64,000 bases of DNA from a candidate division WOR-3 bacterium. Its GTDB lineage: Bacteria > Hydrothermota > Hydrothermia > JBDRYB01. Positions within the stretch are counted from its first letter, which is position 1; every line of letters begins with the position of its first letter. Positions 42,837 through 49,319 of the stretch are shown here, one piece after another. The position numbers and the translations under genes were made by a program. Below the pieces are notes generated by a model. It was not told the DNA's origin and made no database searches. It saw only the letters and a list, made by a program, of their open reading frames with translations. The DNA lies in the NCBI GenBank assembly GCA_039803205.1, contig JBDRYB010000004.1, forward strand, positions 64,001 to 128,000, read 5' to 3'.

Positions 42837-44105
42837 TTAGAACTTTCCCTCCGTGAGCATCTTGAGGAAATCAGCGTTTGTCTTTGTTAGCCTCATCTTT
42901 TCCTGAAGGTACTCCATCGCGTCCGAGGGCTCGAGGTCCGATATGACCTTGCGCATGAGCCAAACCTTCTGAAGGGTGTCGGCTGGGAGGAGCAGTTCCT
43001 CTCGCCTCGTGTAGGATTTTATGAGGTCAATGGCGGGATATATCCGCTTGTCAGCCATGTGCCTGTCAAGGTCCATCTCCATGTTTCCGGTCCCCTTGAA
43101 TTCCTCAAATATGACATCGTCCATCCTACTGCCGGTCTCTATCAGAGCGGTCGCTATGATGGTCAATGAGCCGCCCGACTCTATGTTCCTGGCTGAACCG
43201 AAGAACTTTTTGGGCTTGACGAGGGCTGTGGCATCAAGGCCGCCGGAGAGGGTCCTTCCTGAGTGAGGCGCGACGGCATTGTGAGCCCTGGACATCCTGG
43301 TTATGGAGTCAAGGAGTATTGCTACATCCTTGCCCATCTCAACGAGGCGCTTTGCCCTCTCGAGGGTTATGTCTGAGACATAGACATGGCGGTCTGGGGG
43401 CATGTCAAATGTTGAGGAGACTATCTCAGCATCAACCAAGCGCTCCATCTCCGTGACCTCCTCTGGCCTCTCGTCTATGAGTAGGATGATGAGGTGAACA
43501 TCGGGATAATTTGCTCTTATGGACTGGGCTATCTTCTGGAGGAGGACGGTCTTGCCCGCTCTTGGCGGGGAAACTATCAAGCCTCTCTGGCCCTTGCCAA
43601 TGGGGACAAAGAGGTCAAGTATCCTCATGGAGAGGTCAGTGTCCCCGGAATCCGGCCTCTCCAGGATCATCCTTTCAGTGGGATAGTAAGGGACCAGCTT
43701 CTCAAACTCGGGCCTCTGGGTAGGAAATTCCTCCGGGGAGAAGCCGTGAACGCTCTCAAGCCTTATCAGGGAAGGGAATCGTTCCTTCTCCTTGGGTGGC
43801 CTCGCGTATCCCACTATATAGTCTCCGCGCCTCAGTCCCAGCCTCTTGATTATGTTGGGTGAGACATAGACATCTGAGGGGCTCGGAGCATAACCGTGTT
43901 CCAAGAACCTTAGGAAGCCGTAGCCGTCCTTGTGTATATCAAGAACCCCCTCTTTGCGGAAGAGCCCTTCCCTCTCAGCGGTTTGGTTTGTTATGTGCTG
44001 TATGAGCTCGGCCTTCTTTAACGAGGAGTAATTGGGTATCCCAAGCTCCTTTGCTATCTCGTATAGCTCGGCGAGCTTCTTTGTCTTAAGCTCCTCTATG
44101 TTCAT
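42837..44105 (-). CDS. rho: Transcription termination factor Rho
   Basis: DGYGFLR, GKGQRGLIVSPPRAGKT, DERPEEVT, FKGTGNME. Confidence 0.98.
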   Translation of the reverse strand: MNIEELKTKKLAELYEIAKELGIPNYSSLKKAELIQHITNQTAEREGLFRKEGVLDIHKDGYGFLRFLEHGYAPSPSDVYVSPNIIKRLGLRRGDYIVGYARPPKEKERFPSLIRLESVHGFSPEEFPTQRPEFEKLVPYYPTERMILERPDSGDTDLSMRILDLFVPIGKGQRGLIVSPPRAGKTVLLQKIAQSIRANYPDVHLIILLIDERPEEVTEMERLVDAEIVSSTFDMPPDRHVYVSDITLERAKRLVEMGKDVAILLDSITRMSRAHNAVAPHSGRTLSGGLDATALVKPKKFFGSARNIESGGSLTIIATALIETGSRMDDVIFEEFKGTGNMEMDLDRHMADKRIYPAIDLIKSYTRREELLLPADTLQKVWLMRKVISDLEPSDAMEYLQEKMRLTKTNADFLKMLTEGKF

Positions 44106-44150
44106 ATTTACCTCCCGTAAAAGGTGCCCTGAAAAAAGCGACCAGGGGGT

Positions 44151-44807
44151 TCATAGCATCCTCATCCCGTTTATCCATACCTGGAAGGAAGCCGAGAGCG
44201 CCCTCGCGGCCCTTTCGGCTATGTGTATCCTCGGCGTGAAGATCTCAAAGTATTCCATGACGGGGCTTATCTCGGTATCTATCTCTATCCTGTAAGATAT
44301 AACTCTAGCGGCAGGGTCCACTTCTATAGTGCTGTCAGTTGCCGCGAAATTGACCCTGTCGTGTATATCGTGTTCTATATCATACGCGACCACCCTCGAT
44401 CTGTGGACATCAGCCTTATCGGCGAGGATGACGGCCGCTGTTATTGCTGTCACGGGTTCCCCGGTCTCCTCGTGGTGGTTGCCTATGGCAGTGGCAACAT
44501 CAAGGGCGTCCTGGAACGGCATTCCCATCCCGGTGAGATAAGTCAAGGCGAGGATGGCCCCGGTCTGCTCGTGCTGGTTGCGGTTTACAGCTGAGCCGAT
44601 ATCGTGTAGGTATCCGGCTATCTCCGCGAGCCCAACATCCCTCTCAGGATACCCCAGATTCCTCATTATCTTGCCAGCATCCTCCGATACCTTTGACATG
44701 TGCCTTTCCCCGTGCTCCGTGTATCCCAGCTTGACAAGGGCCTCCTGTGCCCTTGATATGAGCATGGTTATCCTATGGTCCCTTTTAAGGTCTTCTACGG
44801 TTATCAT
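44151..44807 (-). CDS. HD-domain phosphohydrolase
   Basis: TEHG.RH, LHDIG, NHHE, ADKADVHRSRV. Confidence 0.85.
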   Translation of the reverse strand: MITVEDLKRDHRITMLISRAQEALVKLGYTEHGERHMSKVSEDAGKIMRNLGYPERDVGLAEIAGYLHDIGSAVNRNQHEQTGAILALTYLTGMGMPFQDALDVATAIGNHHEETGEPVTAITAAVILADKADVHRSRVVAYDIEHDIHDRVNFAATDSTIEVDPAARVISYRIEIDTEISPVMEYFEIFTPRIHIAERAARALSASFQVWINGMRML

Positions 44808-44822
44808 AAATAAGACTAGAAC

Positions 44823-45539
44823 CTATAGGGCAAAAAGCCCCTCTTCCTCTACAACGGTTCCCACAACCACATAGTCTGCCCCTGCCCCGAACGCGGCCTC
44901 AGCGGCCTCCTTTGTCCTTATGCCACCGCCAACCAGGAGGGGAAGGGTCGTTTCGGCCCTCGCGGCTTTTATCATCCCAGGCGGAACCGGCTTAGGCGCA
45001 CCTGAGCCCGCCTCAAGATATATCGCCTTGAAACCCAGAAGACAAGCGGCCATGATGTGCGCAACGAGTATATCAATCTTATCCCTCGGAATGGGCTTTG
45101 TGCCGGACATAAATTCTACAGCTGTCTGAGCCCCGGATTCAACCAGTATGTAAGCCGTGGTCACAACGGATAACCCCATTCTCTTTATGTGCGGAGCGGC
45201 CCGGACATGCTCCCCTATGAGGAACTCGGGGTTCCTACCCGATATCAGAGACAGAAGAAGGATGCCGTCAGCCTCGGGCGAAAGCTGGGTTGAGTTGCCG
45301 GGGAAAATTATGACGGGTTTCGCGAAGTTTCGCTTGAGCTCCCTTACGAACCCTGAGAAATCCTCTGAGAGCATGAGGCTCGTGCCAGCCAAAACCGCCT
45401 TTACCCTCTCGTCAGGATTGATTCTCTCCGCAAGACGCGGTATGTCCTCCCTGGGAAGACGGTCAGGGTCTAGGAGCACGAAGAATCCCTTGTCCCTATC
45501 TTCCGAAAAGAGTCTCCTTAAGGTATCTGAAAAGGGCAT
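44823..45539 (-). CDS. Geranylgeranylglyceryl phosphate (GGGP) synthase, group II / PcrB family
   Basis: LLDPD, IFPG, LSLISGRNPEFLIG, TAYILVESG, YLEAGSGA, VGGGIR. Confidence 0.9.
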   Translation of the reverse strand: MPFSDTLRRLFSEDRDKGFFVLLDPDRLPREDIPRLAERINPDERVKAVLAGTSLMLSEDFSGFVRELKRNFAKPVIIFPGNSTQLSPEADGILLLSLISGRNPEFLIGEHVRAAPHIKRMGLSVVTTAYILVESGAQTAVEFMSGTKPIPRDKIDILVAHIMAACLLGFKAIYLEAGSGAPKPVPPGMIKAARAETTLPLLVGGGIRTKEAAEAAFGAGADYVVVGTVVEEEGLFAL

Positions 45540-46716
45540 TTTTCCCTTTTTTTAGGGCAAAGGCCGCGAGCCCGGGCGCGCCTGAGAGTATCATGCGGCC
45601 GATATATATAGAATCAACGCTTTCAAGGCTCTTTTCGTGGAAAAGGGGCTTCAGCTGGCCGAATAGGTAATCCAGATCCCGATCCGTGAAATCAAAATAT
45701 GCCTCACGGAGGCTGTATGAGAGCTCGTAGGACTTCCTGTCAGCCTCAGACCAGTATCTCTTTGGATACTCTGCCAGGTTCTTTTCCGAGAGGTCATCCT
45801 CCAGGAGCGCCCTCGCGCCCACCTGGCCGGCTATCGTTCCAGAAAGGAGGGCGGGGCCTATTCCACCCCCGGTTATCGGGTCAGCGAGCCTCGCGGCATC
45901 GCCGACGACCATCACCCTATCTCCATAGGGCCTGAGCCTGTGGCCGCCGGTCGGAACAACGGCCAGGATCCGAGAGAGCCTCTTCCCACGAGGAAAATAT
46001 CTGGCCAAGAAGGTCTCAAGATAAGGCAGGGGATCAACCCTGGCCCCTCTATCAGCAACACCGACCCCAGCGTTGGCGAGCCCGTCTCTTTTCGTGAAAA
46101 GCCAGGCATAGCCGTGAAGCCCTATATCAGAACCGGAGTATAGTCCGAGCCAATCCCCCGATATATCCCCATCGGAAAGGAGAACCTGCGCGGTGTAATG
46201 GACATCCGCATGGGAAACATCAACGGCCAACCCGAGGGCCTTTCCCACGGCGGACGCCGGGCCATCAGCGCCAATCACGAGCCTCGCCCTGACCCGTTCA
46301 TCCTTCCCCAAATGAACGAAGCTGAGCTCTATGTCATCCTTCGTTCTTCGGGCACCCGTGAACCTCGCTGACACGAGAAACTCAGCGCCAGCAGAAGCGG
46401 CCCGGACGGCCAGGTCCCTATCAAATATCCTCCTTTCCAGGATGTAGCCGACATGGCCTACATGAACATGGAAATAATCCCCTCCGGGGGAATAGACCCT
46501 CACATTCCTAACATGATTGGATATCCACCGGGGTTCGGGCTTCCATCCCAGGGCACCGAACCAGAAATCCGTTATACCCTCCGCGCAAGCTATCTCTCCA
46601 GCTACCTGGCGTTGGCGTTCCAGGACAAGAACCCTGAAGCCGCTCCTGGCGAGCTCATATGCGGCGCATGAGCCGCTAGGCCCAGCACCAACAACCACAG
46701 CGTCGTAGCGCTCCAT
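45496..46716 (-). CDS. Geranylgeranyl reductase, archaeal digeranylgeranylglycerophospholipid-reductase-like
   Basis: GAGPSG, CAEG, GYILERRIFDR.LA, IGADG, GYAWLF.K, GDAA...DPITGGGI. Confidence 0.85.
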   Translation of the reverse strand: MERYDAVVVGAGPSGSCAAYELARSGFRVLVLERQRQVAGEIACAEGITDFWFGALGWKPEPRWISNHVRNVRVYSPGGDYFHVHVGHVGYILERRIFDRDLAVRAASAGAEFLVSARFTGARRTKDDIELSFVHLGKDERVRARLVIGADGPASAVGKALGLAVDVSHADVHYTAQVLLSDGDISGDWLGLYSGSDIGLHGYAWLFTKRDGLANAGVGVADRGARVDPLPYLETFLARYFPRGKRLSRILAVVPTGGHRLRPYGDRVMVVGDAARLADPITGGGIGPALLSGTIAGQVGARALLEDDLSEKNLAEYPKRYWSEADRKSYELSYSLREAYFDFTDRDLDYLFGQLKPLFHEKSLESVDSIYIGRMILSGAPGLAAFALKKGKNALFRYLKETLFGR

Positions 46717-46724
46717 GAGGATTA

Positions 46725-47783
46725 TCAGGGGGAGAGTCCGGCTTTCTCCAGGATCTTAGCCCTTATTTCCCCAGCGATATCAGGGTGCTCCCTGAGGAAA
46801 TCCGCGGAGCGCTCCCTTCCCTGACCAAGCTGGGTATCCCCATATGTATACCACGAACCAGCCCTCTTTACTATGCCCTTATCAAGAGCAAGGTCAACCA
46901 GCTCAGCGAACTGATCTATGCCCTTCCCGTAGATGAGGTCAACCTGAGCGCTCTTGAATGGGGGCGCGACCTTGTTCTTCTGAACCTTGATCTTTAGGGT
47001 GTGGCCTATTGCCTCCTCGCCCTCCTTGATCTGGGCGGCCCTGCGAACCTCTATCCTCACTGAGGCGTAAAACTTGAGCGCGTTGCCTCCGGTGGTTACC
47101 TCCGGGTTCGCATACGGGCCAACGCCTATTTTGTATCTTATCTGGTTTATGAATATTACCACCGATCCGCTCTTGCTCACGGCCCCGGCGAGCTTCCTGA
47201 GGGCCTTTGACATCAAGCGGGCCTGCGCTCCAACGGTCGTATCCTCCATGGCGCCCTCCAGCTCAGCTCTTGGAACCAGCGCCGCGACGGAATCAACAAC
47301 AAAGATGTCGATTCCGCCGGAGCGGATCATGGTCTCAAGTATGTCCAAAGCCTGCTCCCCATCATCCGGTTGTGAGACCCACAGGTTGTCAACATCAATT
47401 CCGAGAGCCTTCGCGTATCCGACATCCAAAGCGTGCTCCGCGTCTATGAACATGGCGGTCCCCCCCTGCTTCTGAGCCTCGGCTATTGCCAGGAGAGCGA
47501 CGGTCGTCTTACCGCTCATCTCAGGGCCGTATATCTCAACTATCCTTCCTCTGGGATACCCGCCAACCCCAAGGGCTATGTCAAGCGCGAGGGAACCCGA
47601 AGGTATGACAGGAACCTTCTCAACTGGTTTCCCGCCTATTATCTGCACCGCGCCCTTTCCGTAGTTCTTTTCTATGATCCTGAGAGCGGCTTCGAGCGCC
47701 TTGGCTTTTTCTGAGGGAGGTTCAGTCTGCTTTGGCTTCCCGGAAGCCTTTGTCCCCTCATCCTCGTGTTTTTCTTGTGTCAT
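46725..47783 (-). CDS. recA: Recombinase RecA
   Basis: [36 protein letters not shown]. Confidence 0.98.
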
Positions 47784-48349
47784 GTCTCTTTCTCCTCGAT
47801 CTTTGGTGCCACCACCCCTTTCTGCTCCTGATACTTCCCCTTCCTGTCCTTGTATGATCGCCTCGTTATCTCGCTCGCTTCAATGAATATGAGCTGAGCT
47901 ATACCTTCCCCAGCGTAGACCTTTGCTGGGAGAGGGGTTGTGTTTGAGATCTCTATCGTCAAGTGGCCCTCCCACTCCGGCTCAAGTGGGGTTATGTTGA
48001 CCACTATGCCGCACCGGGCGTATGTGCTCTTTCCGAGGCATATTCCGAGGACATCCCTCGGCATTCTGAAGTATTCAACTGACCTCGCAAGGCAAAAAGA
48101 GTTCGGAGGAATGATGCACTCAGGTCCTCTGAAATCAACCAGGCTCCTAGGATCAAAATTCTTGGGGTCAACAACCGTATTCCAGACCTCAGTGAATATC
48201 TTGAACTCATCCGCTACCCTTATGTCATACCCATAGGAGGAAAGCCCATAGGAGATAACCCCGCGGGTGACCAGTTCTGGCACAAAAGGCTCAATCATGC
48301 CGTGTTTTAGGGCCATTTCCTCTATCCAGCGGTCGGATTTAAGCCCCAT
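47780..48349 (-). CDS. dcd: dCTP deaminase
   Basis: [28 protein letters not shown]. Confidence 0.95.
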
Positions 48350-48351
48350 AT

Positions 48352-48729
48352 CTATTCTATAGCGGCTATGCATTCTATTTCCACCAGCGCGTCCTTGGGC
48401 AACCCAGAAACCTCAACGCAGGCCCTTGCCGGATAAGGCTCTGAGAAGTGCCTCGCGTATACCTCGTTCACGCGAGGGAAGTCCTTCATGTCCCTGAGGA
48501 ATATGGTCACCTTGACTATGTCCTTCATCTCAAATCCACCAGCCTCAAGTATGGCCGATATGTTCCTGAGGGCTAGATCCGCCTGAGCCTCAACCCCCTC
48601 AGCGAGGGCGCCTGTTTTCGGATCTATACCGAGTTGGCCTGATACAAAGACGAAATTGCCAACCTCAACAGCCTGGCTGTAAGGTCCAACGGGCTTCGGC
48701 GCGTGCTGGGATTCAATCGCTCTCTTCAT
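48352..48729 (-). CDS. ridA: RidA/YjgF enamine deaminase
   Basis: [25 protein letters not shown]. Confidence 0.92.
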
Positions 48730-48736
48730 GGCTAAA

Positions 48737-49319
48737 TCATAGACCCAAAGCTGGTTCCGGTGCAACCAGATTAAGGCCCCGATTATCTAACAACGAGTCG
48801 TGCCTGTTGATGAGTATGGAAAGTCCATCCTCGTAGGCCTTTGGAGAGAGGAGAAGAAACCAGCTTTTGCCAAAAGTGGAGGCGACGAGGCTATCGTAGC
48901 TGTATCCATATGACCATTTCAGATGGCTTGAGGGGATGCTGAAGGTATCACCGCTGAACTCCCAGCCACTTATCTCGCCATTCATGAGCTTTCCGATGGT
49001 AATTTCCTCATAGTAGTTAATCTTCAGATTAACCGAGAGAAAAGCGCTATCCCCGAAAACCAGAACTCCCTATACATCACGAAGAAACCGCCGTTTCCGT
49101 AGGCTACAATGGGTGCCTCATAGGACAAACCCCCCATATTCCTCCCAATAGCCTTCTTCCAGAAGTGCCGTCGCGAGCGGCCCTTATCTGATGAGAACCG
49201 TTCACGAATGTGTGCCAGGCAACGAGAAAGTATCCCCCGCCAAAAGCAACAGCGGGTTGATCGTGGGTTCCTGGCGTGTTGCAAACCGGAAAGATCAGGC
49301 TTATCAGAAAGGTAAGCAT
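48737..49319 (-). pseudogene. Frameshifted remnant of a secreted repeat protein
   Basis: SD + ATG; DQPAVAFGGGYFLVAW then APIVAYGNGGFFVMY in another frame; several breaks. Confidence 0.55.

Follow-up and report, generated by a model that had tools for sequence, protein, structure and literature searches.

Overlapping genes for a geranylgeranyl reductase and a geranylgeranylglyceryl phosphate synthase, with candidates for further steps of an archaeal-type ether-lipid pathway, in a bacterium of candidate division WOR-3

The DNA analysed here is a window of 64,000 nucleotides from a candidate division WOR-3 bacterium (assembly GCA_039803205.1, contig JBDRYB010000004.1). It carries two overlapping minus-strand genes, which encode a group II geranylgeranylglyceryl phosphate synthase (GGGPS) and a flavoenzyme of the geranylgeranyl reductase family (GGR). 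An initial annotation of the window had read them as an archaeal-type ether-lipid module. The list of open reading frames (ORFs) matches its coordinates, motifs and 44-bp overlap exactly, the GGGPS frame holding LLDPD, LSLISGRNP and YLEAGSGA, and the GGR frame CAEG, GYILERRIFDR and YAWLF. The features of the locus are as follows.

44823..45539, minus strand: GGGPS, 238 aa (PF01884, TIGR01769, solved relatives)
45496..46716, minus strand: GGR, 406 aa (TIGR02032, PF22578 GGR_cat, 3oz2, tree)
45496..45539, minus strand: 44-bp overlap of the GGR 3' end and the GGGPS 5' end (ORF coordinates)
46725..47783, minus strand: recA, upstream neighbour of GGR, context only (PF00154, 416.9 bits)
47780-48373, minus strand: dcd
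48352-48765, minus strand: ridA
44151..44807, minus strand: HD-domain gene between GGGPS and rho (PF01966, 39.7 bits)
42837..44105, minus strand: rho, context only, closing the co-directional array (domains Rho_N, Rho_RNA_bind, ATP-synt_ab)

Within this array, ridA-dcd-recA-GGR-GGGPS-HD-rho, neighbouring genes overlap or are separated by gaps of at most 45 bp, and the gap from the recA stop to the GGR ATG is 8 bp. The G+C content is even across the window (0.51-0.56) and gives no sign of an island around the pair; gene order and composition both agree with its earlier placement inside a ridA-dcd-recA...rho operon. Upstream of the GGGPS start codon (ATG), and within the reading frame of GGR, stands aaaaaagggaaaa; the identical 44-bp overlap is found in another genome of the same genus (G032, locus L095, 2637-3353 and 3310-4530). 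The overlap likely reflects translational coupling, and GGR and GGGPS are probably translated from one message, within a recA-to-rho transcription unit. Terminator-like sites in the scan were not above shuffled sequence (10 vs 6.9 +/- 2.8) and none fell between the genes of the array, promoter-like matches reached 9/12 only, and no purine-rich ribosome site was seen before the GGR ATG. One of the 9/12 matches, a sigma-70-like consensus match (TGGAGA, 18 nt, GATAAT), lies in the 3' end of recA at 46721-46750 on the minus strand; 5 bp separate the end of its -10 box from the GGR ATG, and a GGR message started there would have no leader or almost none.

The synthase belongs to group II. It exceeds the cut-offs of PF01884 (121.3 bits vs 23.9), of the GGGP equivalog TIGR01769 (170.3 vs 161.55) and of NF003198 (249.2 vs 247), and is weak on TIGR04146, the Archaeoglobus fulgidus type (40 bits), and on the heptaprenylglyceryl phosphate model NF003197 (26 bits). 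Its sequence is close to the group II structures 4jej (E 3.8e-54) and 4mm1 (E 2.9e-43), which we take to be the enzymes of Flavobacterium johnsoniae and Methanothermobacter thermautotrophicus, respectively, and shares FPG, LSL(I/L)SGRNP, YLEAGSGA and VGGGI with both in the alignment. The heptaprenylglyceryl phosphate synthase (PcrB) structures 3vzx and 1viz are matched only at about 6e-7 to 7e-7, so that the protein stands far from heptaprenyl PcrB, in keeping with the group II-type motifs of the initial annotation. According to PMC7888582, group II comprises most archaeal enzymes together with those of Bacteroidetes, and group I the PcrB of Firmicutes and the haloarchaeal enzymes.

The reductase reaches 212.6 bits on TIGR02032 (cut-off 158.8) and 38.8 bits on the GGR catalytic domain PF22578 (cut-off 27). 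Its best solved relative is 3oz2, the digeranylgeranylglycerophospholipid reductase of Thermoplasma acidophilum (E 3.6e-46), the structure of the Sulfolobus GGR comes next (E 5.6e-23), and it is approximately 33-39% identical to the enzymes of Methanosarcinales and Methanothrix. Among the specific NCBIfam models, those for archaeal lipid reductases score highest, at 172 and 136 bits; BchP-ChlP reaches 112 and MenJ 69, and every score is below its equivalog cut-off. As a control, a Methanosarcinales GGR that has its own ferredoxin gene gave the same ranking and also fell below the cut-offs (319.8 vs 780 and 178.6 vs 580); the cut-offs are therefore lineage-narrow, and the failure is not telling. 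The motifs described for archaeal GGRs in PMC10821996 are GxGxxG, a catalytic Cys (Cys47), PxxYxWxFP, RxxFD and LxGD. The window's GGR keeps GAGPSG, C44 (aligned to the Cys of 'vrCgeg' in 3oz2), ERRIFD and a conservative VVGD, and has in common with the Thermoplasma 3oz2 and Methanosarcina enzymes GxGxxG, the conserved Cys, RxxFD, the YxWxF core and (V/L)xGD.

A tree of 47 rows was built by a quick IQ-TREE search, with SH-aLRT support and no bootstrap. Its references, taken from annotated plasmids, were three BchP, one Streptomyces GGR-family protein, two haloarchaeal proteins and FixC. The window's GGR falls inside a 40-row clade (SH-aLRT 95) with the GGGPS-linked GGRs of the phylum, sequences of Gemmatimonadota, Zixibacteria and Latescibacteria, and the lipid reductases of methanogens. 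Outside it stand BchP (a clade of its own, support 100), the Streptomyces protein, FixC and both haloarchaeal references. Within it, the GGRs of the window's class group with one another (support 90) and are separate from the cluster with the methanogen enzymes and most of the ferredoxin-linked ones. The initial annotation had considered that the reductase might prove to be a quinone or pigment reductase; the grouping with methanogen GGRs and away from BchP favours the archaeal lipid type over BchP, in a tree that holds no MenJ or ChlP.

The GGR of Methanosarcina is reported to work with its ferredoxin (Isobe 2014, via PMC7852524 and PMC10821996), and a ferredoxin gene lies upstream of GGR in both Methanosarcinales loci that we inspected. 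A small 2x[4Fe-4S] ferredoxin ORF was also found directly upstream of GGR in five of the seven loci from other classes of the phylum, and in one Latescibacteria homologue the ferredoxin is fused to the reductase. The window's class is unlike Methanosarcina in this respect: no ferredoxin ORF was found within 450 bp upstream of GGR in any of its nine loci, nor anywhere in the window. For the enzyme of Thermoplasma, direct use of NAD(P)H has reportedly been observed. From the lack of an attached ferredoxin gene in the class, direct NAD(P)H use might be guessed for its GGR as well, and our guess is that the reductase of this lineage would draw either on NAD(P)H or on a donor whose gene is not linked to it. 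A tetraether synthase was also sought beside the Methanosarcinales GGR genes; the neighbours found were ferredoxin, TrkH/TrkA and methyltransferase genes.

The distribution of the genes was examined in 151 genomes drawn evenly from the phylum, the window's own included, with thresholds of E<=1e-10 for GGGPS, E<=1e-15 for UbiA, and E<=1e-20 for both GGR-like and G1PDH-like proteins. GGGPS was present in 99 genomes, a DGGGPS-like UbiA in 94, a GGR-like protein in 90 and a G1PDH-like protein in 59. All four occur together in 45 genomes, 36 have none, 31 have the three others without G1PDH, and 39 have other combinations. Whole families carry all of the genes or none; as the genomes are related, these counts are descriptive and do not amount to a statistical test. 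A search for relatives' loci with the single GGR as query confirmed none, and the query from alignment A1 gave 79 loci. Both genes occur in 79 of the 151 genomes. In 36 of these, from many families, GGR immediately precedes GGGPS on the same strand, with spacings of -41 to +253 bp (tblastn coordinates); in one the two are 431 kb apart. The synteny that the initial annotation wished to see compared in relatives is therefore present well beyond the genus.

These observations weigh on a different explanation of the pair, in which the reductase acts on another isoprenoid, such as a menaquinone side chain, polyprenols or free geranylgeranyl diphosphate (GGPP), and stands beside GGGPS only because isoprenoid use is regulated jointly. 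The GGR family also includes MenJ and BchP, the lipid-reductase equivalog cut-offs are not reached, 11 genomes with a GGR-like protein gave no GGGPS, and a prenylquinone is likely in this organism, as a prenyltransferase of the MqnP/UbiA_other type (TIGR01475, 279.7 bits) is encoded in the genome. Against this, GGGPS was found in 79 of the 90 GGR-like-positive genomes, the order GGR-then-GGGPS recurs with overlaps or short gaps in the 36 genomes, the tree sets GGR among methanogen lipid reductases, with BchP elsewhere, the MenJ model scores 69 bits only, and the genome has a single GGR-family gene at E<=1e-20, which leads us to consider this explanation very unlikely.

The contig that carries the window is 138 kb long and belongs to a genome of 2.32 Mb (50 contigs, 95.9% complete and 0.05% contaminated). 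That the genome is bacterial is beyond doubt, as it encodes bacterial RecA, Rho, DnaA, FabH and PlsY. The closest named proteins come from candidate division WOR-3 metagenome-assembled genomes (MAGs), with 84% identity for GGGPS and 81% for GGR, and the closest named genomes by GGR are those of Ca. Caldipriscus (48-49% identity).

Beyond the window, the initial annotation had called for a search of the genome for a DGGGPS-type UbiA and for EgsA/AraM, neither of which lies in the window, and a candidate for each was found, on contigs C8 and C7, respectively. The genome has five UbiA-family genes. The product of the one on C8 (271 aa) has the DGGGPS models NF009521 (169.8) and NF009523 (164.8) as its best NCBIfam matches, and its sole solved relative is the DGGGPS of Methanocaldococcus jannaschii (6m31, E 6.2e-29), with both Asp-rich stretches aligned. 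The other four are the MqnP-like protein, a decaprenyl-phosphate phosphoribosyltransferase-like protein and two unassigned proteins, which reach no NCBIfam cut-off: a 767-aa protein with a central UbiA domain and a long C-terminal extension (G000:C12:43698-46001; L003 592-2895, plus strand) and a 310-aa protein (G000:C7:5518-6450; L004 1333-2265, minus strand). The only CdsA gene of the genome adjoins the C8 UbiA on the same strand, CarS (PF01864) had no match in this 95.9%-complete genome, and there are two CDP-alcohol phosphatidyltransferases (PF01066).

The G1PDH-like protein of C7 scores 225 bits on NF002022, with glycerol dehydrogenase as the next family at 71.6. Its nearest structures are the G1PDHs 4rgq (E 2.2e-44), 4rfl and 5fb3, typical glycerol dehydrogenases matching at 1e-13 or weaker, and GDGIASP, SGSEH and LHGEQ are identical between it and 4rgq. 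Its gene overlaps the 3' end of fabH, in a plus-strand stretch (G000:C7:40819-44827; L093 4820-8828) that runs polyprenyl synthase, PAP2-like DUF212, M50-like protease, fabH, G1PDH-like gene, dnaA. Two polyprenyl synthases are encoded in the genome. Bacterial FabH, two PlsY and GpsA are also present, and the last two indicate that the bacterial lipid route from sn-glycerol-3-phosphate (G3P) is encoded too.

This supply side bears on another proposal, namely that the genes serve salvage or breakdown of the archaeal lipids abundant in hot springs, and not synthesis de novo. Four sequencing runs (X1-X4) contain positions 44100-47800 of the window; they belong to one study and are labelled hot springs metagenome. 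Reverse catalysis has moreover been raised as a possibility, in PMC6431249, for bacteria with GGGPS and DGGGPS and without G1PDH. Here, however, a G1PDH-like gene and polyprenyl synthases accompany the pair, the pair itself sits within a housekeeping operon with recA and rho, and the reductase has no obvious role in breakdown. Salvage seems to us the least likely of the explanations considered here.

Across the 151 genomes, the second prenyltransferase follows the first closely: a DGGGPS-like UbiA was found in 88 of the 99 GGGPS-positive genomes and in 6 of the 52 GGGPS-negative ones. Family membership by sequence, gene order, linkage of GGR to GGGPS and phylum-wide co-occurrence are established.

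The gene order around the pair was followed in 17 retrieved relatives' loci, 16 of which were annotated. In the window's class the order is GGR-GGGPS-HD-rho, with rho downstream in 8/8 loci and the HD gene in 7/8, counting two loci that were settled by further searches; within the 16 relatives' loci it is in the window's genus alone that recA precedes GGR. In other classes the arrangement, seen in seven of eight loci, is alaS-GGR-GGGPS with sugar-nucleotide genes and prs behind it. In five loci from other classes (L104, L106, L107, L110 and L111), alaS, the 2x[4Fe-4S] ferredoxin, GGR and GGGPS are followed by heptose- or nucleotide-sugar-type genes (SIS, GHMP kinase, NTP_transferase and RmlD) and by prs, a second conserved setting of the pair; L106 has two tandem copies of GGR with identical Pfam scores.

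Such surroundings could also suit a minor, non-bilayer product. The pair might make a glycerol phosphate derivative with a single phytanyl or geranylgeranyl chain, which would then lose its phosphate or gain acyl or sugar groups, on the model of the heptaprenylglycerol derived from PcrB in Bacillus, and could serve as a surface-glycan anchor or carrier, with another job for UbiA. This would accommodate the sugar-nucleotide or heptose-type genes after the pair in the seven other-class loci, the position of BacA after UbiA in several families, the fact that the GGR-GGGPS linkage is the only one conserved, UbiA never being adjacent in the loci examined, and the 11 of the 99 GGGPS-positive genomes in which UbiA was not found at the threshold used. 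In addition, the function of the C20 ether lipids of Bacteroidetes is stated as unknown in PMC7888582. The strong phyletic coupling of GGGPS and UbiA argues against it, as do the best family and sole solved relative of UbiA, both DGGGPS, and the finding that Cloacimonetes homologues together give a diether phospholipid in Escherichia coli (PMC7852524). On balance, a minor product of this kind appears unlikely.

The neighbourhoods of the other genes were also compared. The FabH-G1PDH overlap was rejected as a conserved coupling, having been seen only in the same genus (1/14 relatives' loci); in other families the G1PDH-like gene follows a GH57, GT2 or MobA-like nucleotidyltransferase gene, and once a CDP-alcohol transferase. 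The UbiA-CdsA adjacency was likewise rejected (0/13 relatives' loci), although the same-genus contig ends right after UbiA. A SPFH/Band 7 gene precedes UbiA here (G000:C8:46693-49140; L094 4694-7141, minus strand) and in at least five other families. Downstream of UbiA comes CdsA here and, in relatives, either BacA (undecaprenyl-diphosphate phosphatase family) or a Metallophos_2 phosphoesterase with CvpA behind it.

The HD-domain gene next to GGGPS was tried as a member of the module and rejected: it is a class-wide housekeeping gene, present in 54 of the 61 genomes of the class, some from families in which the search gave no GGGPS, and is not specific to the lipid genes. Its sole solved relative is 2pq7, an uncharacterised HD hydrolase, at a weak E of 0.0039. 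In one genus of the same class, a divergent PcrB-family gene with 32-33% identity to the window's GGGPS lies directly beside the HD gene, in the position of GGGPS (G108:C44:34704-35369, G112:C51:13102-13749 and G119:C1:35473-36120). Neither GGR nor a DGGGPS-like UbiA was found in these three genomes at the thresholds used, and the gene is possibly a diverged or re-purposed remnant.

Several studies have described comparable gene sets in bacteria. GGGPS and DGGGPS occur across the Fibrobacteres-Chlorobi-Bacteroidetes (FCB) superphylum and in candidate phyla related to it (Villanueva et al. 2021, PMC7852524). In the same work, GGGPS and DGGGPS of Cloacimonetes yielded an unsaturated archaeol-type phosphatidylglycerol in E. 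coli, the bacterial CdsA could replace CarS, the GGRs were close to euryarchaeal ones, and neither CarS nor G1PDH was detected. The genome analysed here resembles this set in having a group II-type GGGPS and a DGGGPS-like UbiA together, a euryarchaeal-related GGR, and a bacterial CdsA with no CarS found, beside a bacterial fatty-acid pathway. It differs in several respects. In the four MAGs of PMC7852524 egsA/araM went undetected, whereas a G1PDH-like gene is present here. GGGPS lies in an operon with GGR and is not co-localised with DGGGPS, a co-localisation which that text reports in bacteria for Cloacimonetes only. The organism is WOR-3/Caldipriscus-like and from hot springs, whereas the Cloacimonetes came from a marine anoxic water column.

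G1PDH, GGGPS and DGGGPS have been found in one bacterial genome in the Fibrobacteres Chitinispirillum and Chitinivibrio and in some Firmicutes and Actinobacteria (Coleman et al. 2019, PMC6431249). The present genome likewise has homologues of all three core archaeal lipid genes, in a different phylum. Candidate division WOR-3 has a row in Table 1 of that survey; GGR and gene order are not treated in the parts of it available to us. The window's GGGPS gene, unlike those of 4jej and 4mm1, is overlapped by a GGR gene.

In Bacillus subtilis, AraM and PcrB make heptaprenylglyceryl phosphate from sn-glycerol-1-phosphate (G1P), PcrB being a group I, C35 enzyme of the same prenyltransferase family. 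The present case is similar in that a bacterium combines a G1P route with a PcrB-family prenyltransferase and is predicted to make an ether-linked prenyl glycerol phosphate. It is dissimilar in that the Bacillus system lacks DGGGPS and GGR and that the window's GGGPS matches PcrB only at E 6e-7.

Taken together, the evidence suggests that the GGR-GGGPS pair probably provides the first-ether-bond and chain-saturating enzymes of an archaeal-type isoprenoid ether lipid pathway, which would operate beside fatty-acid lipids. In such a pathway the G1PDH-like enzyme of C7 would form G1P, and GGGPS would join to it a C20 prenyl chain from GGPP. The DGGGPS-like UbiA of C8 would add the second chain, the sole CdsA, encoded beside it, would substitute for CarS to give a CDP-activated lipid, and the CDP-alcohol transferases would attach head groups. 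GGR would saturate the double bonds, leading to phytanyl chains. The substrates, the stereochemistry, the product, how much of the membrane it makes up and what supplies GGR with electrons are predictions of this scheme, and it is from the genes that we infer a mixed, saturated membrane.

Several observations weigh against this interpretation. GGR falls under three lipid-reductase equivalog cut-offs (NF041160, 172 vs 780; NF041080, 136 vs 580; NF041385, 67 vs 700), the C8 UbiA is under those for DGGGPS (169.8 vs 296 and 164.8 vs 269), and the G1PDH-like protein is under that of NF002022 (225 vs 413). The catalytic motif PxxYxWxFP of GGR reads LHGYAWLFT, in which the Y-W-F core is intact and both prolines are replaced; FPK is retained by most homologues in alignment A1, and both prolines are lost in the window's genus, which in this also departs from the Thermoplasma and Methanosarcina enzymes. 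The GGR tree has long branches, leaves two haloarchaeal lipid-reductase references outside the clade and does not include MenJ and ChlP. The supply of GGPP is uncertain, as the C7 synthase may be an FPP synthase (269 vs 275) or CrtE-like (250 vs 460) and the C9 synthase is ambiguous.

Linkage is also limited. The four genes are spread over three contigs, with conservation only of the GGR-GGGPS linkage, and the UbiA-CdsA and FabH-G1PDH adjacencies are not seen outside the genus. GGR and GGGPS are on different contigs in 42 of the 79 genomes with both, and some of the weak GGR-like matches (25-30% identity) may be paralogues. Finally, all runs found to contain this DNA are DNA runs, with no RNA run among them.

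A broader proposal is possible, if doubtful at present: that this lineage, and much of the phylum, may have a heterochiral mixed membrane as an adaptation to heat. Saturated G1P archaeol-type diethers, made by the organism's own G1PDH, GGGPS, DGGGPS and CdsA and a ferredoxin-independent GGR, would then lie beside G3P fatty-acid lipids.

GGGPS and DGGGPS, in part with GGR, have already been published for FCB-related bacteria (PMC7852524, PMC6431249), and the present genome is a well-supported further example. Our literature searches found no work treating the ether-lipid genes of WOR-3 specifically; WOR-3 is named in PMC6431249, in its Table 1, and in a preprint (10.1101/2023.10.20.563219) that concerns Hbs/Mss. 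What is new is the G1PDH homologue in the same genome, the co-inheritance of four genes across a phylum, the conserved GGR-GGGPS operon set in housekeeping genes, and the ferredoxin-less arrangement of GGR in the class. The overall picture is unchanged, as the phenomenon itself had been published.

Whether living bacteria make membrane lipids of the archaeal type matters for the lipid divide, and for how archaeol and glycerol dialkyl glycerol tetraethers (GDGTs) are read as biomarkers in sediments and hot springs. Compared with the published Cloacimonetes MAGs, this genome is the more complete candidate: with a G1PDH homologue in the same genome, the G1P stereochemistry needs no unknown pathway, and the GGR-GGGPS operon offers a compact pair for expression. 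If a heterochiral mixed membrane does exist in this lineage, the lineage would offer a natural test case for the lipid divide, with a complete pathway.

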